This document shows, in pieces, positions 3,953 to 24,434 of a stretch of DNA of 64,000 nucleotides (position 1 is the first letter of the stretch; every line of letters starts with the position of its first letter). The stretch is from Candidatus Culexmicrobium cathedralense. Its GTDB lineage: Archaea; Thermoproteota; Methanomethylicia; Culexarchaeales; Culexmicrobiaceae. The notes below the pieces were generated by a model. The model made no database searches. It saw only the letters and a list, made by a program, of their open reading frames with translations, and was not told where the DNA came from. The position numbers were made by a program, and so were the translations under genes. The stretch lies in NCBI GenBank assembly GCA_025061115.1, contig JANZKC010000004.1:64001-128000 (forward strand), given 5' to 3'.

Positions 3953-4225
3953 TTACATCATCCTAGTCACATATTCGACATCGACTTGGCTCACTGATGG
4001 CACACTCAGTATTGCCTCCTCTATGGCCGTCGTGCCCCCCTCGCTCTGCTCTGGCATAACTATCGCCATTTTCAGCGCTTTTAGCCCGAAGGCTATGGGT
4101 TCTTCGGCTGTTTGAGCAACTTTGACGCCTTCTGGAAGCGCGGCGGCTATTTCCTTAGCCATATCTTCTAGGTTGACTTCAACTTCCTTGGGATATACTT
4201 TTACTATGACTAGCACCTTTCCCAT
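3953..4225 (-). CDS. ef1b: Elongation factor 1-beta
   Basis: EEPIAFGLKAL motif, 90 aa, usual neighbour of the zinc-ribbon gene. Confidence 0.96.
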   Translation of the reverse strand: MGKVLVIVKVYPKEVEVNLEDMAKEIAAALPEGVKVAQTAEEPIAFGLKALKMAIVMPEQSEGGTTAIEEAILSVPSVSQVDVEYVTRMM

Positions 4226-4237
4226 AAGCTTCCCTCC

Positions 4238-4420
4238 TTAGGGCCCCACGAACCCACACTTAGGGCACTTGTACGCATTTGCTATGGATCTACAGCGCTT
4301 GCATCTCCACATTATGATTTCTCCACAGTTGGGGCATGGAAAGTTAACGCCCTTTTCTCCAGGCACAATTGGGCTTTTGCATGATATGCATATTGGCAGT
4401 TTTAGCTCCTCTGCAGCCAT
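4238..4420 (-). CDS. Zinc-ribbon small protein (DUF1610/HVO_2753 family)
   Basis: CISC..FPCPNCGE..RCKRCR..YKCPKCGFVGP. Confidence 0.93.
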   Translation of the reverse strand: MAAEELKLPICISCKSPIVPGEKGVNFPCPNCGEIIMWRCKRCRSIANAYKCPKCGFVGP

Positions 4421-7610: not shown

Positions 7611-8110
7611 TCTGCTAGTATACGTACAGTCTCTTTAGTAAATTCGGAAATTACTCTTTCTGCCTGCTCCTTTCCAATGCTTAGCCTTCTCAGATCTGAC
7701 TTAAGTACTCTGATGTAATTCTCTCTACTGCCATCCGGCAGCCAAACAATATTAACGCCCAAAACTCTGGCTGGGGCAAGAACTTGCTCAGCTATTTGGC
7801 GTATACTTGCGGTTTTCTCAATTATTCTCACGGGCTTACCAATTTTACTGGTTAACACTCTTGAAATTCTATTCCATAATGGTCGAAGGGACCTTCCATC
7901 ACTTTTAACTAATACTATAAGCATTTTCTCCGTATCTACAGCCTTAAAGAAGGTGGCATCCTTTAATGCGGGGAACCTATTCTCTAATTCAAGAAAGTGC
8001 TTCCCAATTTCAATATCTAAAGAAGTTATTTCTCCTCTATCTAATTTCTCTTGGCAACTTGGACATAATATTCCGCTTTTTATGCACACGAGGCATATAG
8101 GTAGTTTCAC
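7607..8110 (-). CDS. NusA-like KH protein with N-terminal Cys cluster (archaeal NusA paralog)
   Basis: PICLVCIKSGILCPSC, LAPARVLGVNIVWLPDGS. Confidence 0.8.
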   Translation of the reverse strand: MKLPICLVCIKSGILCPSCQEKLDRGEITSLDIEIGKHFLELENRFPALKDATFFKAVDTEKMLIVLVKSDGRSLRPLWNRISRVLTSKIGKPVRIIEKTASIRQIAEQVLAPARVLGVNIVWLPDGSRENYIRVLKSDLRRLSIGKEQAERVISEFTKETVRILAE

Positions 8111-8173
8111 GAAAGTTTAACCCCCAGCTATTAAAGAAATAAGGAATAATTGTATGTTGGCAAAGCGCTTGAT

Positions 8174-11875: not shown

Positions 11876-12037
11876 ATGCCAATACACGACCCTGAAAAAC
11901 TCAAGATCGCACAGCAACGAAGACTATTTGTAAAAATATGCAGAAGATGCGGCGCAAGAAACGCTCCATCCGCAGAGAAGTGCAGACGATGCAGAAGCAA
12001 AAATCTGCGATGGAAGAGAAGAGAGCGCTCACGCTAA
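11876..12037 (+). CDS. rpl40e: 50S ribosomal protein L40e (below ORF-track cutoff)
   Basis: Translated by hand: [53 protein letters not shown]. Confidence 0.97.
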
Positions 12038-12135
12038 ACTCCAAGACAATAAATAACTACATTATTCTGATCACCTTAACCAACTAAAAGTAGATTTAAT
12101 AGTAAATTTTTAAGGTGCAATCCAATATTTTAACT

Positions 12136-12212
12136 GGGCGGGTGGTCTAGCTGGCTAGGATTCCGCCCTCACACGGCGGAGGTCGTGGGTTCGAATCCCA
12201 CCCCGCCCACCA
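12136..12212 (+). tRNA. tRNA-Val(CAC)
   Basis: GGGCGGG/CCCGCCC acceptor stem, CCGCC-CTCACAC-GGCGG anticodon arm, GTTCGAATC, encoded CCA. Confidence 0.97.
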
Positions 12213-12322
12213 CTACCATCAAATTGATGATTGTAATTATTGCTCTATGCTCCACATTTATTACACATATTCTTGATATAATGCCCTGCAATTCTGCTTT
12301 AATAGAGAAATGAATCATTACC

Positions 12323-12889
12323 TCATTGAACAACTCTCAAATTAATTTTATATTCAACAGTTTGCAATGGAAAATAACCTACAAACATTAATGCATATAT
12401 CCTAAATCTTAGCGTTATGGTTAAAACATAATTTTTAGGAGGAATCTGATATTTGACTAGATGCATATTAATAATTATGTGATCGCCCATATTCCACCAA
12501 TAATCACCAATGTTAAAAATGGTGAAGTATTTATCAAAACATATCAAATCAATTATTTCAATAGTAAACCCAGTTATAATTGGAATAGTAATGTTTTCAG
12601 AAATTTTTCCAATAATTATTTTAAATAAATGTGGCACTCCCTGCGCAAGTTTAGAAGCATTAACATAAATTGGATGTATGCCTACGAGCAATTTTAATGA
12701 GCCAAAATTTGATTTAATTAGTATATACTCAAAGTGCCATGGATATGTCGAGTTCATTTCTAATAACTTATTAACAGTATTCTCTTCAATTGTGTTTAAT
12801 TTTTTAGGAGAAAAATAATTATATATGAAGATTGATGATATAAATAGAAATATAATAAATATAAAGAAAAATTTCTTATATCTTTTCAT
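12323..12889 (-). CDS. Hypothetical membrane-anchored protein in AT-rich island
   Basis: N-terminal basic residues then a hydrophobic helix; beta-rich body; very AT-rich. Confidence 0.7.
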   Translation of the reverse strand: MKRYKKFFFIFIIFLFISSIFIYNYFSPKKLNTIEENTVNKLLEMNSTYPWHFEYILIKSNFGSLKLLVGIHPIYVNASKLAQGVPHLFKIIIGKISENITIPIITGFTIEIIDLICFDKYFTIFNIGDYWWNMGDHIIINMHLVKYQIPPKNYVLTITLRFRIYALMFVGYFPLQTVEYKINLRVVQ

Positions 12890-12916
12890 TTTTTATCACC
12901 GATTCTATCTTAATAG

Positions 12917-13714
12917 TCATGGTGGTATAACATTTACTATTATTTGAAAGCTTATTTGATAAGTGCCGATGTATATGTTCCTAAGTGTCAGGGGTTGAAT
13001 TATCTCCGAAGATCTTCCTGAAGGCGATATTGAGTCTAGCCATCCAGGATCATTTGTCTCAAGGTATATGCTGGCTTCAGCAGTTATCGTAACAACATAT
13101 TGTCCTTCATAATCAAAAGCAGTAAACATTTTTGAAGCAGCTGTAACTGAATGATCATTCATTGTAAATTGAATCCAATGACCACCTGAACCTATAGTGA
13201 GAGAAACTGGCGATGGATAATATTTTAGTAGCATTTCTATAACCCCCAATATGTCAAGTAGCGTTTCAAGTAACTCCCTATACTCAAAAGTCCCCTCATC
13301 ACCACTACCTAAGTTAGTTTCGATATATTCTACGTGCGAACTAAATACGCAATGCTCCCCGCCATCTATCTTTACCCACATACTGCCGACATAAGGTTTA
13401 TAATAATACGTTTCACCACTTGGAGTAGTTCTAGTCCATTCATCTTCTAGTCTAACTGCTAATGAGACTTTCCATAGCCAATCATCCCCTTGCGGGACAT
13501 CCGTATAATACTCAATAGCGACAGCAAATCCTTTTGAGACAACGTGACTGCCAGAGCCATCATCATAGTAATAATAGAACCACGTTGTATCTCCGCTACT
13601 TTCACGTTTAAGTGTTGGAGCATATGCTTTCAATGTTATTAATGGGACCATCATTAATAGTATCAAAATTATTATTAATATTTTTACTTTGAAATTTTCC
13701 ATATTTTCACCCAC
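12917..13714 (-). CDS. Hypothetical secreted protein in AT-rich island
   Basis: Signal peptide ending AYA; beta-strand-rich body with one central amphipathic helix. Confidence 0.75.
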   Translation of the reverse strand: MGENMENFKVKILIIILILLMMVPLITLKAYAPTLKRESSGDTTWFYYYYDDGSGSHVVSKGFAVAIEYYTDVPQGDDWLWKVSLAVRLEDEWTRTTPSGETYYYKPYVGSMWVKIDGGEHCVFSSHVEYIETNLGSGDEGTFEYRELLETLLDILGVIEMLLKYYPSPVSLTIGSGGHWIQFTMNDHSVTAASKMFTAFDYEGQYVVTITAEASIYLETNDPGWLDSISPSGRSSEIIQPLTLRNIYIGTYQISFQIIVNVIPP

Positions 13715-14025
13715 TTTTATTTTAATTTTTTCCTATATATATATTTTTTAAACTTCATAATAATAGAAAATTTTAAACTATTATCATTTTCTTGGGAAAA
13801 TTAAGAGCAATTTAAGGTGAACTAAGAACCTCAAGGAAAGCTGATGAGCGTTCATAATTATAATATTTGATTTTGGTGTGGATTTAGGCATTGATGGAAC
13901 TGAATTAATAAGCTTTTCTTATTTGAGATTCTAGGAGAATAGTTGAAAACTCATGATTATTTGGACTAGATCTGATATGCCATTTCAGTGTTCTGAAGAT
14001 GAGTTGTGATTATGCAGATTTATAC

Positions 14026-16102: not shown

Positions 16103-17719
16103 CTAATCAGCCCTTAATGTTTCACTTAAAACCTCTCTTATCCTTTTCCAATCATTATGCCATATCACTTTTATTTCTCTATTTAGCTTCTTGCACTCTC
16201 TCATTATCTCCATCTTTAATTGGTTGCTCCAGTCATCTGATTTTTCGAAGAATATCACCGTTTTATAATCGTTATTCTTGATAAGCTCATTGAGCGCTTC
16301 CAATACGATGCTTTCTGCATTAAGATCCTTAAATATGCTCTTTTCATACTGCGATAGCGGGTAAACTTCATCAAGCTCTAGTGGTACGATGCCAAATGGT
16401 AAACAGTATATGCATTCATGCACTTCGCCGCTTTTTTCCTTCGCTATCTCCTCGATAATTCTGAGGACTTTAACTACGTAATTGCTTTCGTGAAATGGTC
16501 TTTCATGAGGGTCGGGTAGGAGAAGAAGCACTCGCTTACCTGGAAATCTGACGTTTTCGCTTAGCCTCTTCACGTGCCTAGTGACTTCGGGGCGTATTAA
16601 TCCTTCACTTGTGGTATAGAATATTCCTCTTACTTTGCTTTTTACTACTGGATCGAATTTCTCCAAATAATGCTTATATTTTTTCAATCTAAGCACCGCT
16701 TGGTAGAGTTGCGGATGAGCTTTTGCGCGCATTTCAATTAATTCCCAAAGAGTGCCCTCATGGATGGCCTGCCTAATGTTATTCATCTCCTGCAACACTA
16801 CTGCCAAGTTGTGCTCTGCCAAGTAACGTATGCGCATTTCCCTGCTCATTTCCTTTAAGTCCTCTACATCCATTTTTCTGCATACGTCGCAGCTGCATGG
16901 TAGTGAATGAAGCCTAGAAAGCTTAATTGTCCCTCTCGATGTCATGTACCTTTCATCTCGCGCGTAAATGGCGTAAGCAGCTGAATCAAACGTATCGCAT
17001 CCAAGTGCGACGAGGAGTGGGAGCGTAATTGGGTGCCCTGCACCGAAAAGGTGTATTGGGCGCTCTAGGGGGAGTGCCTTCTTGGCTGTTACTACTAGAT
17101 CTACAAGCTCGTCGAACTTGTACTTCTCCATGAACTGCGTTGGACCTCCAATTCCATGCATTTGAAAGTTCATCTCGCCGATTTTCTTCGCACAGTATTC
17201 GACTAAATCTAAGAATTTGCCTCCTTGAACTGGACCCACCCAAATAATGTCTTCACGGGTTGCTGCCTTTAGACTTATTTCTGCGTTCTTCAAAGTCTCC
17301 TTCACTCTTTTCAGCGCCTCATTGTATGCTGCCGCTCTGGGTGTCGGTATGTCGAGGATTACGGCAATATCACTGTTCAAGGCTTCTTGAACTCGTATGA
17401 CTTCATCCGGCCCGATAGATACAGCGCCATATACAAGTATTTGGTAAGCTCCTGAATCCGTCATTATGGTATATGGGAAGTTGAACATTTCATGAATATC
17501 CCTTATTGGTGAAGATGACTCATTTAAAAATTTCTTCACTAAATATGCATTTGTTATTATTGTCCTTAATCCGTACTTCTCCTTGATAACTTCTACTGGT
17601 ATCACATTTTTATGTGGACTAATCACAGGGAAAAAAGCTGGAGTTTCTATAGTTCCACTTTTCGTCCTCAGCCTTCCTATTCTACCTGCCAAGTCTCGGT
17701 CTAATATTTCAAAGATCAT
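16103..17719 (-). CDS. tgtA: Archaeosine tRNA-guanine(15) transglycosylase
   Basis: ETPAFFPV, MTDSGAYQ, HLFGAGHP, DTFDSAAY, CSCDVC..HNL zinc site. Confidence 0.96.
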   Translation of the reverse strand: MIFEILDRDLAGRIGRLRTKSGTIETPAFFPVISPHKNVIPVEVIKEKYGLRTIITNAYLVKKFLNESSSPIRDIHEMFNFPYTIMTDSGAYQILVYGAVSIGPDEVIRVQEALNSDIAVILDIPTPRAAAYNEALKRVKETLKNAEISLKAATREDIIWVGPVQGGKFLDLVEYCAKKIGEMNFQMHGIGGPTQFMEKYKFDELVDLVVTAKKALPLERPIHLFGAGHPITLPLLVALGCDTFDSAAYAIYARDERYMTSRGTIKLSRLHSLPCSCDVCRKMDVEDLKEMSREMRIRYLAEHNLAVVLQEMNNIRQAIHEGTLWELIEMRAKAHPQLYQAVLRLKKYKHYLEKFDPVVKSKVRGIFYTTSEGLIRPEVTRHVKRLSENVRFPGKRVLLLLPDPHERPFHESNYVVKVLRIIEEIAKEKSGEVHECIYCLPFGIVPLELDEVYPLSQYEKSIFKDLNAESIVLEALNELIKNNDYKTVIFFEKSDDWSNQLKMEIMRECKKLNREIKVIWHNDWKRIREVLSETLRAD

Positions 17720-18169
17720 TTAAGCTTCACTTGGCTTCTTCTTCTCGGACACGAACTGCTCGTAAATGCGCTTAACTCTCTCCGCTACAGGGCCCGTGCC
17801 CTCAACAACACCTTCCTCTGTGACTCGCACTCTGTCCATAACTACAATTACCCCTGCTTCTTCATACAACTTAACCATGTTCGGAAACACTTTCTCAAGC
17901 CTTTCTGCTAATCCTCTTAAATCGAAAGGCTCCTCCTGTCTAATTATCTCGGAGACGACATCTCCTCGAATAAAAACTCTAGCATAAGTCGCTCCACTTT
18001 CATCCTTAGCACTAGACAAGCATAGGCTCAATGTATTGGGATCATATCCAATTAATCGCCCTGAATAGGTTCTTCCCAAGGTGGTCCTAACACTAACCAT
18101 TTTATCCAGCAACAAAGTTAGCTCTCTCAAGAACCTCGAGCTTCCAGTTGCAGTCAAACTACTAATCAT
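17720..18169 (-). CDS. Lsm protein with C-terminal domain (SmAP3 type)
   Basis: Sm1/Sm2 motifs (YSGRLIGYDP, FIRGDVV) plus C-terminal domain; start moved to ATG 18169. Confidence 0.88.
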   Translation of the reverse strand: MISSLTATGSSRFLRELTLLLDKMVSVRTTLGRTYSGRLIGYDPNTLSLCLSSAKDESGATYARVFIRGDVVSEIIRQEEPFDLRGLAERLEKVFPNMVKLYEEAGVIVVMDRVRVTEEGVVEGTGPVAERVKRIYEQFVSEKKKPSEA

Positions 18170-18255
18170 TATTTTTCCTCCAACCGAATTTGGATTAGGC
18201 AGAAGCATTTATTTGCTTTTTCATTTAATAGACTTGCTGGTTGGTGGTGCAACTC

Positions 18256-18648
18256 ATGAACTTGTCACTTAAAGCTCGAATTGACAGAATTGAGCCTTCT
18301 GAAGTTAAGGGAATCAGGACTTACCACTTTTCCGTATACGATGAAAAGGTAAGCATTGTAGGAGAGCTTCCAGATAGGCTTGTAGATGAAAAAATGAAGA
18401 AAGGCGATGAAGTAATCTTCCTAATATCCGATGAAGACATCTCTTTATCAGATCTCTCACAGTTTGGCTCTCCAATCACAATGTTCGAAGGCGTACTTTT
18501 TAAAAAGTCAACTTTGGAAACTGAAGGCGCAATCAAGTACTGGATATCTGTTTACGGCTTACAATTCAGAATTTCAAGCGAAAAGGATTTGCTCCCGAAC
18601 GTTCGTAAAATTCAAATTGCAATTTGTAAGACACCTCCACGCGATTAA
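18256..18648 (+). CDS. rpo8: Probable RNA polymerase subunit Rpo8 (RpoG)
   Basis: OB-fold pattern with ISVYGLQFRISS, matching the Rpo8/RPB8 IS(F/L)GGL-like motif; divergent from the SmAP3 gene. Confidence 0.65.
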   Translation: MNLSLKARIDRIEPSEVKGIRTYHFSVYDEKVSIVGELPDRLVDEKMKKGDEVIFLISDEDISLSDLSQFGSPITMFEGVLFKKSTLETEGAIKYWISVYGLQFRISSEKDLLPNVRKIQIAICKTPPRD

Positions 18649-18797
18649 ATACACTTTCACTTATCTCTCCTCTACCTAACTAATTGTTTAAAAATATTAT
18701 ATGTAAACTGAATGGTACTAATTGTTCTATTAAAAGTATTTAGATATAAGAAAAAGTTTAATAATTAAAACTAAATAATTTTATACTTGGTGTCTAC

Positions 18798-19787
18798 ATG
18801 ATTAACAAGAACATGCGATGCAAAGAGTGTGGAGGTCCCTTGGTTTTATCGAAGTATGGTGAATGGGTTTGTGCAAGATGTGGGCTTGTCGATGACCAAT
18901 TGCTTTTACCGCCGCTTTTCGAAATAGAGCCTTTATCAGACTTTTCGGCTTCATTTAAAATTTATGTTAGTCCAGATGGGAAGCCGATTAAGCGGGATGG
19001 CCTTGGATCAGTAATTCTAAGGTGTAAAGGCCAATTTAAAGATAGTAAGGGTAATGTTCTCAGCTATAAGCGCTTTTCAAAGTTGCAACGCACTCACACG
19101 CTTTACTCTCGCTCAGCAAGTATGAAGGTAGGGAGCAATGCGATGGACTCGCTTCGCAGGGCATGTGCATCTATGGATGTTCCAGCTCACGTGTATGAAA
19201 GATCATGCTATATTTACTTGAAGGCTTTGAAGTGCGTGAAGAGTAAGGGTTCAAGCTACTCTTTAGCTGCTGCTTCACTGCTAATTGCTTCAAGAGAGTT
19301 GAAATACCCCCTCACGTTAAGAGAAGTTGTCCACCTATTCTCGAGCATGGGTCATCGCGTAGTTCCTAGAACAGTTTCAAGACTTGCGGCTGAAATACTG
19401 AATAAGCTTGGAATTAAGCACGTCTCAAGAAGTCCTGAAGACTATCTGCCCAAAATTATCAATGAGCTTAGGAATGTGAAGCGCGTGAAGAGGCAGCTCG
19501 AGGATCTAGGTCTTGACGGCGATAAATATTTCGTGCTGCTCTCCCAAAAGGCATACTTCGTTTTTAACCTTTTAGGCAACCGCATAAAAGTAGGTAAAAA
19601 TCCATATCTACTTGCTGTCTCAGTGATTTACGTCGCTGATAAATTAGTTGCCAAAGAATTGAATTGTAAGCCTCTTCTTTCGCAAAAGCTACTTGCGGTA
19701 CACTTAAACTCAACGGAGTACACTATTAGGCAGCATTATAAGATTATCCGAAGCTGCTTGTCAAATGCTGATAAAAGGCAGGCGTGA
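18798..19787 (+). CDS. tfb: Divergent transcription initiation factor IIB paralog
   Basis: Zinc ribbon CKECGG..VCARCGLV, two cyclin repeats (LAAASLLIASR, GKNPYLLAVSVIY), HTH STEYTIRQHYK. Confidence 0.88.
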   Translation: MINKNMRCKECGGPLVLSKYGEWVCARCGLVDDQLLLPPLFEIEPLSDFSASFKIYVSPDGKPIKRDGLGSVILRCKGQFKDSKGNVLSYKRFSKLQRTHTLYSRSASMKVGSNAMDSLRRACASMDVPAHVYERSCYIYLKALKCVKSKGSSYSLAAASLLIASRELKYPLTLREVVHLFSSMGHRVVPRTVSRLAAEILNKLGIKHVSRSPEDYLPKIINELRNVKRVKRQLEDLGLDGDKYFVLLSQKAYFVFNLLGNRIKVGKNPYLLAVSVIYVADKLVAKELNCKPLLSQKLLAVHLNSTEYTIRQHYKIIRSCLSNADKRQA

Positions 19788-19831
19788 TGCGAGGTTTAAA
19801 ATACCTTAATAGCTTCGCCAATTAAGGAGCA

Positions 19832-21901
19832 ATGAGCAATCTATGCCTACTGTCTTCAGTAATTAGGCGAAGCGCAGGAAAGGTTAAGGTGGCTTTTCTC
19901 TGCCCCAATAAATGCCGTGCTAGAAGTTCTCTCGGATTCAGTTTATGCATTTCATCTTACGTGTGTGCTACTGCTCCTCTTTTAAAAAGTGGTGCGAGTA
20001 CATTTTCTCTCTCCTTTAATTTTGCTCATAACGCTCACTTCTCCCAATACATTCTATCACTTGCAAAAGCTGTATACTTTCTTCGCTTTAAGAATTTTAG
20101 AAAGTTTAGAGAACTGTATGACTACCTATCTGAAGTTGACTCTCCCTTTAATTCTCTTAAGGATGCGCTTCTACTTCATCCAAGAGTGGGCTTCATTTAT
20201 TTTGACTTATCTCAAGCAATTAGCTGTTTAAATGACTTCATAAGAAGTGAAAGGCGCTTTCCCGGCCGTTTGATGTCCTACTTAAAATCATTACGGAAGG
20301 AATTGTTAGGTGCGTCAAAGCTGAAAGATTATGCTATTCCACTCTCTCTATCAGGTGAAAGCATTGCTGGTTTAGATAGCCCTATAGGTAAGGTTCTTGA
20401 GCGCTACCAGCTTGCTGCATTTCTAATTGAAGTAATTTCTACCTCAGAATTTTCCGAGCCAATTTACAAGGTGAATTACCTTGAAGAGTTAACACGTCTA
20501 TTGCCGGTTGTCTGGTCTGTAAGCACACTTATACGGCTAAAGAGATTTGGAAGTTTTTCTGCTGGGCATGGATACATATCAGCTCTGCTGGCTTCAAGGT
20601 TTCGCAAAGCTTTGAGAGCAGTGAAAACGTTTTTCCCGGAAGTTGATGACTGCCACGCTTCTCCTATTGCTCTTTTAGCTGCGTTTGATTCCATTGGCTT
20701 CATGAAGCTACTGCCCTTCCTCATCGACGACATGGTTGAAGAGTTCTTCATCGACAGTCCCGGCACCGGCATATACTTGGACCATTCTAGGTGGGGCCGC
20801 TGTAAATCCAATGTTTCAACAACCAATATCGATGTTAAGAGGATACTTACTCAACTTAGGGCAGAAAGCAGCCTTAGGCTAGATTACTCTTCCCCATCTT
20901 TGAAAACTGACGTAATTACGAAGTTCTTTCATGTTAGAGTTTCAGTTGATGCTCCACCGCTAACGGTTGAGGGGCCTTCTCTGATATTTAGAAGGTTTAG
21001 ACGGAGGCCGTGGACGATTGTCGACTTGATTAGAAATGGAACTATTTCAAGTGAGGCTGCAGCGTACTTGATTTTCTGCCTATTCAGAAGAAGGAACATT
21101 ATTGTAATTGGCGAGCCAGCCACTGGGAAGACTACATTAATAAATGCTCTTGACATACTGTCGCCGCCTCATTGGAGGAAAATCACGATAGAATCAATTG
21201 TTGAGAGCGTGGGTCAGTTAGATTTGGGGAAGCATCAAGTTCGATTTAGAGTTGACCCATTTGAAAGGTTAGCTCCCATGCGTCGAAAGTACTTAGAAGT
21301 TATAAGGCTTCTGCATAGATCTCCAAACTACCTCTACTTAGGGGAGATCTTAACGAAGGAGCATGTTAAAGCTCTGCTCTATGCGCTTTCATCTGGACTG
21401 CGGGGATTACAGACGTGCCATGCAAGTTCACCTGAATCCCTACTTGTAAAGTGGGTTATTCACTATGGCGTGCCTGCTTTCTGTCTAAGCGACTTAGATA
21501 CGATAGTCCTTATGAGGAGGAAGTTAACTTCCCACGTCAACCGCAGATATGTAGCAAGAATTACTGAGCCAGTTCTCACTAAGTTAGATAGCTCCTTGAA
21601 TTCAGTTAAGCTAATAGATGTTTTCAGGAGAAATTCTTACTTTGAACCTCTAAGATTGGTTATCGACTTGTACGAGTCTCCCACGTTGCAAAGGATTAGA
21701 GATGAAGATCCCATCGACAAGGATTCCTTCACTAGAGAGCTCCTATTCTATAAAAAGCTACTGGAGCTTCTCTGCAGCTTGGAAATTACTTCTCCTAAAG
21801 CTATTAGCCGCGTGTTTTTAAAGGCGTTTCTCCTTTCGCAAAATGGCGTTTTTGATGTTGAAGAGGTGATTGATGGTGTCAGCTTTTTTGAGTGTTTATA
21901 A
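19832..21901 (+). CDS. Type IV pilus/Tad secretion ATPase (VirB11/TadA family)
   Basis: Walker A GEPATGKTT, Asp box KITIE, Walker B RSPNYLYLGEI, His box TCHASSP. Confidence 0.88.
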   Translation: MSNLCLLSSVIRRSAGKVKVAFLCPNKCRARSSLGFSLCISSYVCATAPLLKSGASTFSLSFNFAHNAHFSQYILSLAKAVYFLRFKNFRKFRELYDYLSEVDSPFNSLKDALLLHPRVGFIYFDLSQAISCLNDFIRSERRFPGRLMSYLKSLRKELLGASKLKDYAIPLSLSGESIAGLDSPIGKVLERYQLAAFLIEVISTSEFSEPIYKVNYLEELTRLLPVVWSVSTLIRLKRFGSFSAGHGYISALLASRFRKALRAVKTFFPEVDDCHASPIALLAAFDSIGFMKLLPFLIDDMVEEFFIDSPGTGIYLDHSRWGRCKSNVSTTNIDVKRILTQLRAESSLRLDYSSPSLKTDVITKFFHVRVSVDAPPLTVEGPSLIFRRFRRRPWTIVDLIRNGTISSEAAAYLIFCLFRRRNIIVIGEPATGKTTLINALDILSPPHWRKITIESIVESVGQLDLGKHQVRFRVDPFERLAPMRRKYLEVIRLLHRSPNYLYLGEILTKEHVKALLYALSSGLRGLQTCHASSPESLLVKWVIHYGVPAFCLSDLDTIVLMRRKLTSHVNRRYVARITEPVLTKLDSSLNSVKLIDVFRRNSYFEPLRLVIDLYESPTLQRIRDEDPIDKDSFTRELLFYKKLLELLCSLEITSPKAISRVFLKAFLLSQNGVFDVEEVIDGVSFFECL

Positions 21902-22712
21902 GATCTTTAATGCTTGTTTGCCTAGCAAGCTGTTTTCCAAGTTTGTTTCTCATGACTATAGAACGGCCATAAACTACCTTTCTATGAAGTATGGATTTTT
22001 CAACCTCTCTCCTGAAGATTTCCTTTCTTCAGCTGTTTCATTAGCGCTTATTTCTGGAGTGCTTTCATGTGCAATCCTAACCTACGTTCTTCAAGTAAAC
22101 CTTCTTTCTAGCTTGGCATTTTCAATTTTGTTGTTTATCGCCACTTACTTTTTCACGGCGTCATATCCCTTAAGAATATATCAGTATGAGCGCTCCATAT
22201 ACTCTCGCTATGCATACTTTGTGTTGAAAGAGCTGAATCTAGTTCTATTATCGACTAACTCTATTTTTGAAGCGATTAACTTCATAAAGTCTGGAGGCTA
22301 CCCTCTAATATCGCGGGACTTCGATGAAATTATAATGAATTGCGTTAATGGCTTCACTCCAGAAGAACTACTCCAAGAATATGCCCTTAATCAACCTTCA
22401 ACAACACTGAGGCAAGGTTTAATGGCGATTGAAAGTACGTCTGAAATTTCCGCATCTACTTTGAAGATCTTCTCTAGGTTTTCTTCCTCCGAGATAAGGA
22501 GGATTTACAAGGAGCAAAGTGTAAAAATGGAGATGTATTGTTTGCTCATCATAGTTTTGGGGCTGCTGTTCCCATTTACATATACATTCCTACTTTCGTA
22601 TCTTGGCTTCTCATCCTCTCCACTAGCGTTTCTTATGGCCCCCATTCAGCTGTTTTTCCTGATAATTACTTCCAAAGCTCTACTTGGTCGCGTTGCTGAG
22701 CCATTGGGGTGA
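21870..22712 (+). CDS. TadB/TadC-like (T2SSF) membrane platform protein
   Basis: Two N-terminal TM helices, soluble EAI.FI...GYPLISRDF domain, two C-terminal TM helices; overlaps ATPase end. Confidence 0.72.
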   Translation: MMVSAFLSVYKIFNACLPSKLFSKFVSHDYRTAINYLSMKYGFFNLSPEDFLSSAVSLALISGVLSCAILTYVLQVNLLSSLAFSILLFIATYFFTASYPLRIYQYERSIYSRYAYFVLKELNLVLLSTNSIFEAINFIKSGGYPLISRDFDEIIMNCVNGFTPEELLQEYALNQPSTTLRQGLMAIESTSEISASTLKIFSRFSSSEIRRIYKEQSVKMEMYCLLIIVLGLLFPFTYTFLLSYLGFSSSPLAFLMAPIQLFFLIITSKALLGRVAEPLG

Positions 22713-22718
22713 AAGCTT

Positions 22719-23570
22719 ATGCGTAGATCATTTTCCTTTAAGCTTTTCCCTATCGCCTTAATTCTTTCCCTTTCAATTAGCTTTTTCATAGTTAAGTTTT
22801 TCACACTGCCTCGGCTTCTCCTTCCCTTCATAACTGCTTTAATCGCTTTGCCATTGATTTTTCTCAGTTCCTCGCTGCTTCCCAGCTGGAAGGTGGAGGA
22901 TAATGAGTTTAAGCGTCAGGAAATTGTGGAGCTAGAGAATTTCTTAACGCTTTTTAGCTCCTACCTTAAGCTTGGTTTGAGCCCGGAGGCGTCATTGTTA
23001 AAGGCTTGCAATCAGTACTCTGGAGCGTTAAAGTCCTTATTTACTTCAGTTATTCAGTCAGCAATTACTACGGGTGGATCTGCATCCGATACATTAATCT
23101 ATTTAAGTAGAAAGCTAAGATGCCCTGAAAGTAGGCGCATATTAATTCTCTTTTCTAGAGCCTTGAAAATGGACTCCAAACGTTTTGGTAATTCAGCTAT
23201 GGCTATTATTTCTTGCCTTAAGGAGAATAGAGCTCTTAAAGAGTATGTCGACCTGCTTTTCTCCAAAATGAGGCTGAGAGCTTCGCTCTTAGCAGTGGTG
23301 TCATCAGCTGTATTAGCTGTTATGACAAGATTGGCTCCGCTTTTTTCAATTTTGAGAATTGCAGCATCTAGTACGGAGCTACCCTCAGCTTTTCCTCAAT
23401 CACCTGCAAGCTCTACTTTATTTATGGCATTATCAATGTTGGCTTTCATGAACTCCTACTTTGTTTCACTAATTGTTCATCATAGGCATCCACTTCTGCT
23501 ATCTGCTGCTTCAATCGTAGTGTATGCTTTAGTGTATCTCCTCTTTCCTCAGCTCCTACTTAGCTTTTAA
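22719..23570 (+). CDS. TadB/TadC-like (T2SSF) membrane platform protein
   Basis: FLTLFSSYLKLGLSPEASL signature of T2SSF domains; multiple TM helices. Confidence 0.75.
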   Translation: MRRSFSFKLFPIALILSLSISFFIVKFFTLPRLLLPFITALIALPLIFLSSSLLPSWKVEDNEFKRQEIVELENFLTLFSSYLKLGLSPEASLLKACNQYSGALKSLFTSVIQSAITTGGSASDTLIYLSRKLRCPESRRILILFSRALKMDSKRFGNSAMAIISCLKENRALKEYVDLLFSKMRLRASLLAVVSSAVLAVMTRLAPLFSILRIAASSTELPSAFPQSPASSTLFMALSMLAFMNSYFVSLIVHHRHPLLLSAASIVVYALVYLLFPQLLLSF

Positions 23571-23603
23571 ATATGTTCTTTCTCAGTAGTCTGGCGGGAG
23601 CAA

Positions 23604-23849
23604 TTGAAGAAACTGTATTATGCATTTAGTAATTTGCTCAAGAATCGGAAGGGATCTCCCTTACTTGAGGAAGGGATGCTTATTGCTCTCGCCATAATGA
23701 CGCTTGCAGTAATTTTTTCGATAGCTCTCGGCATATTGGGTGAAGTTCAGGAGATTGTTGAGAATATGGGCTTCACAACAGACAACTTCGTGAATTCGTT
23801 GGATGCACTATGGAATAAGATATTAGCGTTTCTCGGTCTCCAAAGCTGA
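23604..23849 (+). CDS. Small class III signal peptide pilin (Flp-like)
   Basis: KNRKG/SPLLEEG then a 20-aa hydrophobic helix; Glu at +5; 64-aa mature form. Confidence 0.8.
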   Translation: MKKLYYAFSNLLKNRKGSPLLEEGMLIALAIMTLAVIFSIALGILGEVQEIVENMGFTTDNFVNSLDALWNKILAFLGLQS

Positions 23850-24434
23850 GTAAGTGCGCAGGAAGTCGTCGAGAATGCCTTCATCGCTCAACTTCTTAAT
23901 CCAATTAATTCTTCCAGGCTTATACTGATCGCCATCACTTATCGCTTTCAGTATTTCATTAACGATTTCATCCGAGTTTTTGCCAGTAGCATCTATTTCT
24001 CTAACCATATCCTCTCCATAGGCTTGTATTGCCCTTATCAAGCATTCATCCAGCACTTCAGCCAAAACGTTTTCTCGCACCTTCTTTATCGGCCATTTGC
24101 GCTTAATCAGCCTTTTTTCAAGCTCTCTAGGGTCGACTCTTAGAACTATTGCGCACTTGATGAGCTTCCTTGGCACTATGTCGGCAAAGTGCCCTTCTAC
24201 CACCACATCTCTATCGCTGCTTTCAATGATTTCTACAAGCTTTTTCAGCAGCCTTCTTTTATCTGCAATTTTCGCTCCACTTCGCCTTTCATCTATTCCA
24301 ACATAGAGCTTCTCATCCTCAATTAATCTAGAAATGTCAATGTGAGTTGCATTGAGAACGGAGGTCAGCTTTTTCGCAACCGTGGACTTCCCCGTTCCGG
24401 GTGATCCTTGTATAACTATAACCTTTTTCATCAT
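23823..24434 (-). CDS. Adenylate kinase AK6/Fap7 family
   Basis: GSPGTGKST, VVEGH, RENVLAE. Confidence 0.92.
   Translation of the reverse strand: MMKKVIVIQGSPGTGKSTVAKKLTSVLNATHIDISRLIEDEKLYVGIDERRSGAKIADKRRLLKKLVEIIESSDRDVVVEGHFADIVPRKLIKCAIVLRVDPRELEKRLIKRKWPIKKVRENVLAEVLDECLIRAIQAYGEDMVREIDATGKNSDEIVNEILKAISDGDQYKPGRINWIKKLSDEGILDDFLRTYSALETEKR

Follow-up and report, generated by a model that had tools for sequence, protein, structure and literature searches.

Components of the locus

We analysed a 64,000-nucleotide stretch (hereafter the window) from contig JANZKC010000004.1 of the archaeon Candidatus Culexmicrobium cathedralense, in which five genes at positions 18798-23849 bring together a paralog of the transcription initiation factor TFB and the parts of a small type IV pilus (T4P)-like machine. 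An earlier note, made from the sequence alone, had described five co-oriented open reading frames (ORFs) here, separated by gaps of at most 44 bp, and the ORF list of the plus strand bears out the arrangement. The first gene encodes a divergent full-length TFB (18798-19787; 329 aa) and the second a divergent secretion ATPase of the VirB11/FlaI superfamily (19832-21901; 689 aa). These are followed by two putative half-size platform proteins of the TadB/TadC- or GspF-like kind (21870-22712, 280 aa, with about 4 transmembrane (TM) segments; and 22719-23570, 283 aa) and by a candidate Flp-like prepilin with a TTG start (23604-23849; 81 aa), all on the plus strand. From TFB to pilin, the successive genes are first separated by 44 bp, then overlap by 32 bp, and are again separated by 6 bp and by 33 bp, and the maximum gap of 44 bp is therefore correct. 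GGAG Shine-Dalgarno-like motifs lie 5' of the ATPase gene and of the 81-aa ORF, the latter motif 4 nt before the TTG codon.

The TFB paralog, which is the third TFB of the genome, contains a Zn ribbon and two cyclin folds. It matches the Pfam family TFIIB with 27.6 bits (cut-off 23.6) and scores 68.4 bits, against a cut-off of 384, on the canonical archaeal TFB model NF001658. Its residues 3-318 align to positions 11-303 of the 312 in that model, and this end-to-end alignment, together with the Pfam match, confirms the earlier description of a full-length paralog. The two canonical TFBs of the genome are encoded elsewhere, on its contig C1, and group with canonical TFBs in the TFB tree, where the module TFBs form one clan (SH-aLRT 92) whose branch lengths indicate a much faster evolution than that of the canonical pair. 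Across 19 orthologs of the module TFB the CxxC...CxxCG Zn ribbon and a C-terminal EYTIR.H helix are invariant.

The ATPase matches the Pfam family T2SSE over residues 363-571 with 42.5 bits (cut-off 24.9), and its best matches among PDB sequences, six in all, include GspE2 (2oap), FlaI and CpaF. On the NCBIfam models of individual systems it scores 76.4 bits for FlaI, 66.1 bits for BasE and 64.8 bits for the TadA family (TIGR03819, cut-off 373.15), all far under the cut-offs, with FlaI and BasE ranking above TadA; on the FlaI model, 300-700 bits are reached by the ordinary T4P ATPases that this genome and two others encode. Walker A, Asp box, Walker B and His box are kept in 20 of 20 orthologs, and judging from these motifs the module ATPase is apparently catalytically competent. 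Its N-terminal ~280 aa are unique: residues 1-280 match no family among the Pfam and NCBIfam profiles, and a confident structural model of this region (pLDDT 84.5, pTM 0.85) finds no fold match in the PDB with Foldseek, the best probability being 0.25. The region carries cysteines C5, C24, C28, C39 and C45, a pattern common to four of the families that we compared (f1, f4, f7 and f8) and lost in another (f3).

The two platform proteins match T2SSF under the cut-off in their window copies (E 0.045 and 0.0074, respectively), and T2SSF is the top Pfam family for the orthologs of both: 5 of 14 orthologs of platform protein 1 have it at E <= 1 (best 1.7e-5), as do 5 of 16 for platform protein 2 (best 3.1e-5). 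They are weakly paralogous to each other (hhalign 48.6%, E 1.8e-4). An AF2 model of platform protein 2 (pLDDT 79.9) recovers GspF-type cytoplasmic domains as the PDB matches of highest Foldseek probability, namely EpsF/OutF (0.93-0.99), SpoIIIAB (0.97) and a PilC model (0.75).

The 81-aa protein combines a basic leader, the sequence RKG/SPLLEEGMLIALAI (the slash marks the predicted cleavage site), one TM helix and one amphipathic helix. Its predicted mature N-terminus, S-P-L-L-E-E-G-M-L-I..., resembles that of bacterial Flp pilins, in which the motif is G/xxxxEY. The residues L, E, E, G and L are invariant in 18 orthologs, and the family consensus is [KR][GA]/S-P-L-[LV]-E-E-G. In 43 loci, some of which represent the same genome twice, an ORF of 62-91 aa with [KR][GA][SGA]xL[LVI]EEG stands at this position, and the small ORF is kept in 27 of the 30 relatives' loci that have the ATPase. 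Its identity across orders is 55-60%, against 25-30% for the platform proteins. A database search collects 294 family members at E <= 0.001, none of them with a Pfam domain; most are named hypothetical, and several carry the automatic JGI name 'Flp pilus assembly pilin Flp'. A search with the family profile among PDB sequences retrieved only designed helical bundles and other helix-only matches, and in the ESM Atlas the best match, a cluster of a hypothetical Thorarchaeota protein, scored 0.89 where the threshold was 0.9.

The earlier designation as a class III pilin does not hold in the sense of profile models, none of Flp_Fap, Class_IIIsignal and Pilin_N matching the 81-aa ORF. Genome-wide searches with Class_IIIsignal (PF04021) and Pilin_N (PF07790) match other loci, and Flp_Fap (PF04964) has no match in the whole genome at E <= 10. 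Cleavage of the leader is a prediction from the conserved basic leader and [KR][GA] motif, and the genome has one A24 peptidase. That no prepilin peptidase lies in the window, as had been noted, agrees with the profile search, which found no Peptidase_A24 there; the only match of the genome is on another contig (G000:C2:191477-191839). On that contig the same genome has two ordinary T4P loci with Pilin_N-type pilins (G000:C2:129600-133400 and C2:190000-195900), and the second of these houses the A24 peptidase, beside an ATPase.

Taken as a set, the genes correspond to the Tad-like parts list that had been proposed: a single ATPase with a pair of half-size platform proteins and a tiny pilin of the Flp-like kind. 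The bacterial Tad/Flp systems (TadA/CpaF, TadB, TadC, Flp) and the archaeal Epd pili resemble the locus in having one ATPase, two half-size platform proteins, which in the locus are weakly T2SSF-like, and a pilin of 60-90 aa with a G/xxxxE-type processing motif followed by G-[ML]-L-I; CpaF is among the six PDB matches of the ATPase. Unlike Tad/Flp, the locus fails the TadA model (64.8 bits, cut-off 373) and its pilin has no Flp_Fap match at E <= 10; moreover, no secretin, TadZ, TadE/F or dedicated TadV was found in the window.

Genomic neighbourhood and behaviour as a unit

The gene cluster recurs too often to be a chance arrangement: orthologs of the ATPase were detected in 30 of 40 relatives (E <= 1e-60, paralogs appearing at about 1e-29). 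In 21 of these 30 loci the TFB gene immediately precedes the ATPase gene on its strand; in 5 others, from Nezhaarchaeales, it lies a few kb off, beyond the genes for the archaeosine tRNA-guanine transglycosylase (TGT, arcTGT) and SmAP3, and the remaining 4 loci are cut short here by contig ends or by the limit of the stretch compared. The linkage of TFB to the pilus genes, which the earlier note had proposed to check in relatives, is conserved across the class and beyond. When 401 genomes sampled across the phylum were searched at E <= 1e-50, the ATPase ortholog was present in 85, spanning all sampled families of the Methanomethylicia and some 15 families outside the class; at this threshold none was found in, among others, families f10 (0/56), f12 (0/16) and f27 (0/15). 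Six matches near 1e-36 were considered as further copies and rejected, being ordinary paralogs where checked. In families f19 and f31 (G064, G092) the matches belong to T4P loci of the ordinary kind, in which PilA-like pilins and a KaiC-like gene occur.

The context of the module is made up of core informational genes. Upstream in the window lie the two genes that serve as context anchors, TGT (16103-17719, minus strand; Pfam TGT 276.7 bits plus DUF5591) and SmAP3 (17720-18208, minus strand; Lsm_C 81.9 bits, LSM 27.5 bits), followed by an RpoG/Rpo8-like RNA polymerase subunit gene on the strand of the module (18241-18648, plus strand; RNA_pol_RpbG 25.0 bits, E 2.1e-5). The presence of SmAP3 and rpoG just upstream, as given in the earlier note, is thus upheld, the RpoG-like match falling just below its cut-off of 27. 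TGT adjoins SmAP3 in nearly all loci examined, and RpoG-like counterparts adjoin the TFB gene in the family of the source organism, in three loci from families f19 and f31 discussed below (L239-L241) and in one further locus (L175). Between the RpoG-like ORF and the TFB gene are 149 bp of AT-rich spacer (18649-18797, plus strand), a putative promoter with a BRE/TATA-like stretch, as judged by eye, ~40 bp before the TFB start. One copy of the Sulfolobus A(N)TTTC promoter hexamer was seen by eye ~145 bp upstream of the TFB gene and was dropped, the motif being too short for its occurrence to have meaning. The distal border of the module is a convergent AAA_18 nucleotide kinase-like gene (23823-24434, minus strand; 70.6 bits), which overlaps the 3' end of the pilin gene. 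Farther away, the 2-kb bin at 12001-14000 has a G+C content of 0.327, against 0.40-0.47 in the rest of the window.

Named genomes were scanned with SmAP3 as the anchor, independently of the module; the relatives of the window are Candidatus Methanomethylicia, namely Culexarchaeum, Nezhaarchaeales and Methanomethylicaceae. In carriers, the complete block from TFB to pilin stands between the kinase and SmAP3. In most Bathyarchaeia loci the order is kinase-SmAP3-TGT, the kinase abutting SmAP3 with no module, and in a Culexmicrobium thermophilum record (L075) it is kinase-RpoG-SmAP3-TGT with the whole block missing. Being present or absent whole between kinase and SmAP3, the block acts as one insertion/deletion unit, and this unit includes the TFB gene.

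This behaviour bears on the possibility that the TFB is a mere neighbour of the pilus genes, that is, a third general TFB with a genome-wide role whose position reflects frozen synteny. The thermosome, kinase, SmAP3, TGT and RpoG genes do form a deeply conserved housekeeping block, and the Nezhaarchaeales have SmAP3 and TGT interposed between TFB and ATPase. Against it, the TFB is gained and lost together with the rest of the module, as in most Bathyarchaeia loci and the Culexmicrobium record; a TFB of the module clade is absent from all 4 of the 4 ATPase-lacking genomes examined; and the rapid evolution of the module TFBs sets them apart from the canonical two. We therefore regard a mere neighbour as very improbable.

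Several variants of the locus were encountered. In some Bathyarchaeia versions (L081:5612-8768, L130:5098-7631, L128:6646-8860) a divergently oriented gene resembling A24 peptidases (Peptidase_A24 24.6 bits in L130, E 0.024 in L081) stands between TFB and ATPase, together with 4-5 likewise divergent small ORFs with an N-terminal hydrophobic helix, minor-pilin-like; the window has no counterpart of these genes. Methanomethylicaceae-type loci have two small opposite-strand ORFs between TFB and ATPase (L055:7257-7673 and 7745-8137), one of them with an archaeal-pilin-like start (RGQASLIDALGALLVAI). In families f4 and f8 one or two small soluble alpha-helical proteins are encoded in the same interval (L040:4421-4762; L047:3691-3993, 3956-4402), and these match no Pfam family above noise.

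Relationship to subclade 4D and to the TFB3-CedD neighbourhood

A combination of a TFIIB homolog, RPB8, a secretion ATPase and a membrane protein was already described by Makarova, Koonin and Albers (2016, Front Microbiol 7:667) as subclade 4D, so that the locus is not novel in kind. In the part of that paper drawn on here, 4D is a T4P-like system of Thermoproteales, specific to Pyrobaculum and Thermoproteus, and consists of an arCOG05558 ATPase, an arCOG05557/13890 membrane protein with 4-5 TM segments, an arCOG05559 TFIIB homolog and RPB8. The ATPase has an extra N-terminal cysteine domain and no C-terminal domain, the TFIIB homolog has one cyclin domain and belongs to the same operon, and RPB8 is next door. 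The same part of the paper counts two components, sees 'no potential pilins', and describes no function, suggesting a possible relation to transcription.

By walking from RpoG we found this arrangement in 3 of 4 genomes of families f19 and f31 (L239-L241), recognised by gene order and not by arCOG assignment. The order is thermosome, a 4-TM protein, an ATPase of 342-525 aa with a Cys motif, a Zn-ribbon TFB-like protein of 157-275 aa, RpoG, SmAP3 and TGT. The fourth locus (L242, an f31 genome, G092:C1:31000-48000) reads TGT-SmAP3-RpoG-thermosome with no TFB, ATPase or membrane-protein genes, an apparent clean loss. In a tree of 44 ATPases, obtained by a quick search, rooted on PINA-like ATPases and containing no named Epd or TadA references, 25 module ATPases group with the 3 of 4D type in a single clade (SH-aLRT 95), whose sister group comprises 13 other T4P ATPases, one of them passing the FlaI cut-off. 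The ATPase accordingly falls outside the FlaI-type and other T4P ATPases sampled, Epd and TadA references not being among them, and for the clades sampled the refuting condition set in the earlier note, an ATPase inside a characterised clade, did not arise. The 4D-type TFBs join the module TFBs weakly (support 74).

The locus thus resembles 4D in that its ATPase, located near SmAP3 and TGT, has a TFIIB homolog and RpoG/RPB8 as neighbours, possesses an extra N-terminal Cys region and shares one clade with the 4D-type ATPases. It is unlike 4D in its two platform proteins, conserved Flp-like pilin, full-length TFB and 689-aa ATPase, in a range covering Methanomethylicia, Bathyarchaeia and other Thermoproteota, and in the CedD-like partner that most versions have. 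That the locus is a 4D-type module is very likely. Because it has two platform proteins, a prepilin-like ORF and a full-length TFB, it is not the published reduced form; because it shares the gene arrangement and the ATPase clade with L239-L241, it is a fuller, expanded relative of 4D and not a new kind of system. The best explanation is that the locus represents the complete, Methanomethylicia-type form of an ancient Thermoproteota module, of which 4D is the reduced Thermoproteales form. Relative to published 4D, and within the literature searched (supplements lying outside it), what is new is the pilin, the second platform protein, the wide range, and the links to CedD/XPD and TFB3.

The suggestion of Makarova et al. 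for 4D leads to a different reading, as a transcription-linked membrane device in which the ATPase and platform no longer build a pilus, and instead control the TFB or are controlled by it, for example by anti-sigma-like sequestration, the small protein being a sensor or a stub. Several features are in keeping with such a device: the tight packing of TFB and ATPase genes (44 bp here, overlapping in L240), the constancy of RpoG as a neighbour, the unique and confidently modelled N-terminal region of the ATPase with no PDB fold match, and the Thermoproteales-type loci that lost the pilin and one platform protein and kept TFB, ATPase and one membrane protein. In the complete forms, however, the prepilin-type motif is invariant and the catalytic motifs of the ATPase are intact, and the TFB keeps the Zn ribbon, both cyclin folds and the C-terminal helix, like a normal DNA-binding initiation factor; a physical link between ATPase or platform and TFB is a supposition. 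For the complete forms we hold this device to be quite unlikely.

A second comparison is with the Sulfolobales. According to the parts of the cited sources used here, the ATPase CedD (saci_0667 / SiRe_1715) depends on TFB3, is induced by UV and is indispensable for the import of DNA (PMC11823120; bioRxiv 10.1101/2024.09.27.615246), TFB3 is bound by chromatin immunoprecipitation (ChIP) at the herA1/SiRe_1715 (= cedD) promoter (PMC6101594), and tfb3 is Saci_0665 (PMC6934391, PMC5817253). The earlier note had placed Sulfolobus tfb3 near SmAP3 and rpoG. In the Sulfolobaceae-like family f27 the order is indeed TGT-SmAP3-RpoG-like ... TFB3-like ... CedD in 7 of 7 loci, the TFB3-like ORF of 166-202 aa standing between SmAP3/RpoG and cedD. 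The thermosome gene, in other lineages a flank of the module, is found in f27 between TFB3 and CedD. At this site the f27 loci have no ATPase, platform or pilin genes, in line with the absence of the ATPase ortholog from the 15 f27 genomes. In other Thermoprotei-like families a CedD-like gene stands beside SmAP3-TGT or the kinase, with neither T4P genes nor a TFB.

In the chromosomal neighbourhood TGT-SmAP3-RpoG ... TFB3 ... CedD, and in the association of a TFB paralog with a pilus system and a membrane-bound HerA/FtsK-type DNA-moving ATPase, the module therefore resembles the TFB3 regulon of Sulfolobales, with its Ups pili and Ced importer. It differs in that TFB3 is truncated (166-202 aa, with neither B-reader nor second cyclin fold), whereas the window TFB is full length at 329 aa. 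Moreover, the Ced system works with VirB2-like pilins and with CedA and CedB; the source genome shows neither a CedB nor a VirB4 match at E <= 0.001, and the module-associated CedD-like proteins, unlike the Sulfolobales CedD, score below the CedD equivalog cut-off. In the TFB tree the module and TFB3-like proteins fall on one side of a branch, and module, TFB3-like and canonical TFBs meet at a node with support 84. The phylogeny was considered as proof of TFB3 orthology and set aside, given this node support and an approximately unbiased (AU) test that gives p = 0.106 for the alternative that TFB3 arose by duplication from another TFB within its family. The simplest reading of the gene orders is one ancestral block, thermosome-kinase-CedD-pilin-platform-platform-ATPase-TFB-RpoG-SmAP3-TGT, of which lineages kept different parts. 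We found no earlier statement of a connection between 4D, CedD and TFB3 in the literature searched, from which supplements were outside.

The CedD-like gene and possible function

In many relatives the gene directly after the pilin encodes a membrane-anchored HerA/DUF87 (HerA/FtsK) ATPase. This is so in 7 of 7 loci of Methanomethylicaceae and in 3 of 4 of family f4, and it also holds for f8, f9 and a number of families beyond the class. Among NCBIfam models, these pilin-adjacent proteins match 'DNA-translocating ATPase CedD' (NF053655) best, with 203 and 190 bits against a cut-off of 600, which is passed only in family f27 (15/15 genomes) and by the control S. acidocaldarius. From a comparison of coordinate lists by hand, among the best CedD-model matches listed, at least 53 of the 85 module genomes have that match on the strand and contig of the ATPase, 3-4 kb further downstream, this count being a lower bound. 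Five more genomes, from f4 and f8, have a second CedD-like subtype right after the pilin, bringing the total to at least 58 of 85. The two genes also disappear together: among f5 genomes, ATPase and CedD-like gene are both present in 21 and both absent in 7, a CedD-like gene is found by itself, at contig edges, in 3, and 1 has a weak match; these genomes are kin and not independent, the absences being spread over at least 4 genera. Another genome (G005) lacks the ATPase, the CedD-like gene and the module-clade TFB alike. From these associations we consider it probable that the module is functionally coupled to the CedD-like ATPase.

In the source genome the CedD-like gene (G000:C1:451271-452956; CedD model score 78 bits) is away from the module, flanked by a family-4 uracil-DNA glycosylase (UDG) and an XPD/Rad3 helicase. 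In 22 of 23 loci the next gene after a CedD-like gene of this subtype encodes an XPD-like helicase, the 23rd being cut by a contig end, and in f4 and f8 the second platform gene, pilin, CedD-like and XPD-like genes are contiguous. Neither CedB nor VirB4 was found in the source genome at E <= 0.001 (CedA, CedA1 and CedA2 being outside this search), so its CedD-like ATPase has no type IV secretion system (T4SS)-type partner of these kinds. The conserved block as a whole (G000:C1:450232-454763; L144:7233-11767) consists of a 118-aa ORF, the family-4 UDG, the CedD-like gene and the XPD-like gene with overlapping gene ends, and the 118-aa ORF travels with it throughout the order of the source organism. 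A second XPD paralog of the genome lies at C1:137772-139550.

In Nezhaarchaeales-type genomes the strand that carries the CedD-like/XPD-like pair also has, 5-6 kb away, a second T4P ATPase paralog of the ordinary kind (G026:C1:719504-726812, G018:C45:24799-32208, G024:C9:13520-21583, G020:C2:258952-266354, G036:C52:2208-9682). Given this proximity, the translocase may have re-partnered with another pilus locus in these genomes.

We tentatively propose that the module is a T4P-like DNA-transfer apparatus with a dedicated activator TFB of the TFB3 type, a reading based on gene content and context to which we would give a little less than an even chance. In such an apparatus, the single A24 prepilin peptidase of the genome would cleave the leader after G/A, and the ATPase and platform would polymerise the subunit of ~64 aa into a short pilus or pseudopilus. 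Together with the membrane-anchored CedD-like HerA/FtsK translocase, and in several lineages the XPD-like helicase, the filament would carry DNA through the cell envelope, most probably inwards as the Ced system does; in the source organism the CedD-like and XPD-like genes would have moved away from the module to another place in the genome. The TFB paralog would be the dedicated TFB3-like activator of the module, probably under stress or DNA damage by analogy with TFB3. Bacterial competence offers a parallel, the ComG pseudopilus with ComFA/ComEC being a type IV filament machine coupled to a DNA motor of the cytoplasmic membrane; this is an analogy without homology, as the motor here is of the HerA/FtsK type.

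The more conventional function would be that of an ordinary Tad/Epd-type adhesion or aggregation pilus, with the TFB as a condition-specific regulator and the CedD-like and XPD-like genes as passengers. The parts list fits the Tad/Epd architecture, the CedD-like gene is outside the locus in the order of the source organism and in Nezhaarchaeales, and some Bathyarchaeia versions possess, as real pili do, an A24 peptidase-like gene and 4-5 further pilin-like ORFs. Among the functions proposed, the CedD-like and XPD-like neighbours nonetheless speak for DNA exchange rather than adhesion: at least 58 of 85 module genomes have the CedD-like gene next to the module, and in f5 it is lost along with the ATPase. 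In addition, the pilin is better conserved than the platform proteins, which would be unusual for an exposed adhesive fibre. The module also resides in a vertically inherited block of core genes, as opposed to the patchy distribution of typical archaeal T4P loci noted in the part of Makarova et al. (2016) drawn on here. An adhesion pilus is on this evidence unlikely.

A number of observations weigh against the DNA-transfer apparatus and the homologies that underlie it. For the source organism the module is known from its genes, from which filament, expression and DNA transfer are all deduced. The 81-aa ORF matches no Pfam family at E <= 0.1, nor the three pilin profiles named above, and its Flp likeness consists of the motif plus some automatic JGI names. 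T2SSF stays below the Pfam gathering score in every member of the platform proteins, and none of the Foldseek matches of platform protein 2 reaches E <= 0.001, those of the EpsF/OutF type having E 0.4-0.9. The CedD-like gene is outside the locus in both families of the source order (f1 0/4, f3 0/5) and in Nezhaarchaeales (f7 0/7), so the DNA link for the source genome rests on relatives; and with 78 bits against the cut-off of 600 its CedD-like protein is not a CedD equivalog. The orthology with TFB3 is positional, the AU test (p = 0.106) leaving a within-family duplication unrejected, the trees come from 'quick' searches with long branches, and the 4D rows depend on gene arrangement. Finally, conservation of a neighbourhood among core informational genes could partly be ancient frozen synteny.

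At the broadest level, the last common ancestor of much of Thermoproteota may have had one integrated operon for DNA uptake and exchange, with a dedicated TFB, a Tad-like mini-pilus and a CedD-type translocase, joined in some lineages by an XPD-type helicase, of which 4D and the tfb3-cedD neighbourhood are two remnants; we regard this as a possibility, and a somewhat doubtful one. If it is true, TFB3-controlled DNA import predates Ced and Ups and survives nearly intact in methanogenic Methanomethylicia and Bathyarchaeia, and the module would be a candidate machine for archaeal natural competence. It would also unite three puzzles, namely the role of the pilin-less, TFIIB-linked 4D system, the origin of TFB3 and CedD, and DNA uptake outside Sulfolobales. 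The module occurs in lineages with cultured members, which makes these ideas experimentally testable: a record of the pilin family is named by NCBI as Ca. Methanosuratincola petrocarbonis, a strain of which has been isolated according to the portion of the source used here (PMC12244365). Should the DNA link be wrong, the locus would still be a clean case of a general transcription factor paralog that is co-inherited and co-lost with one membrane machine.

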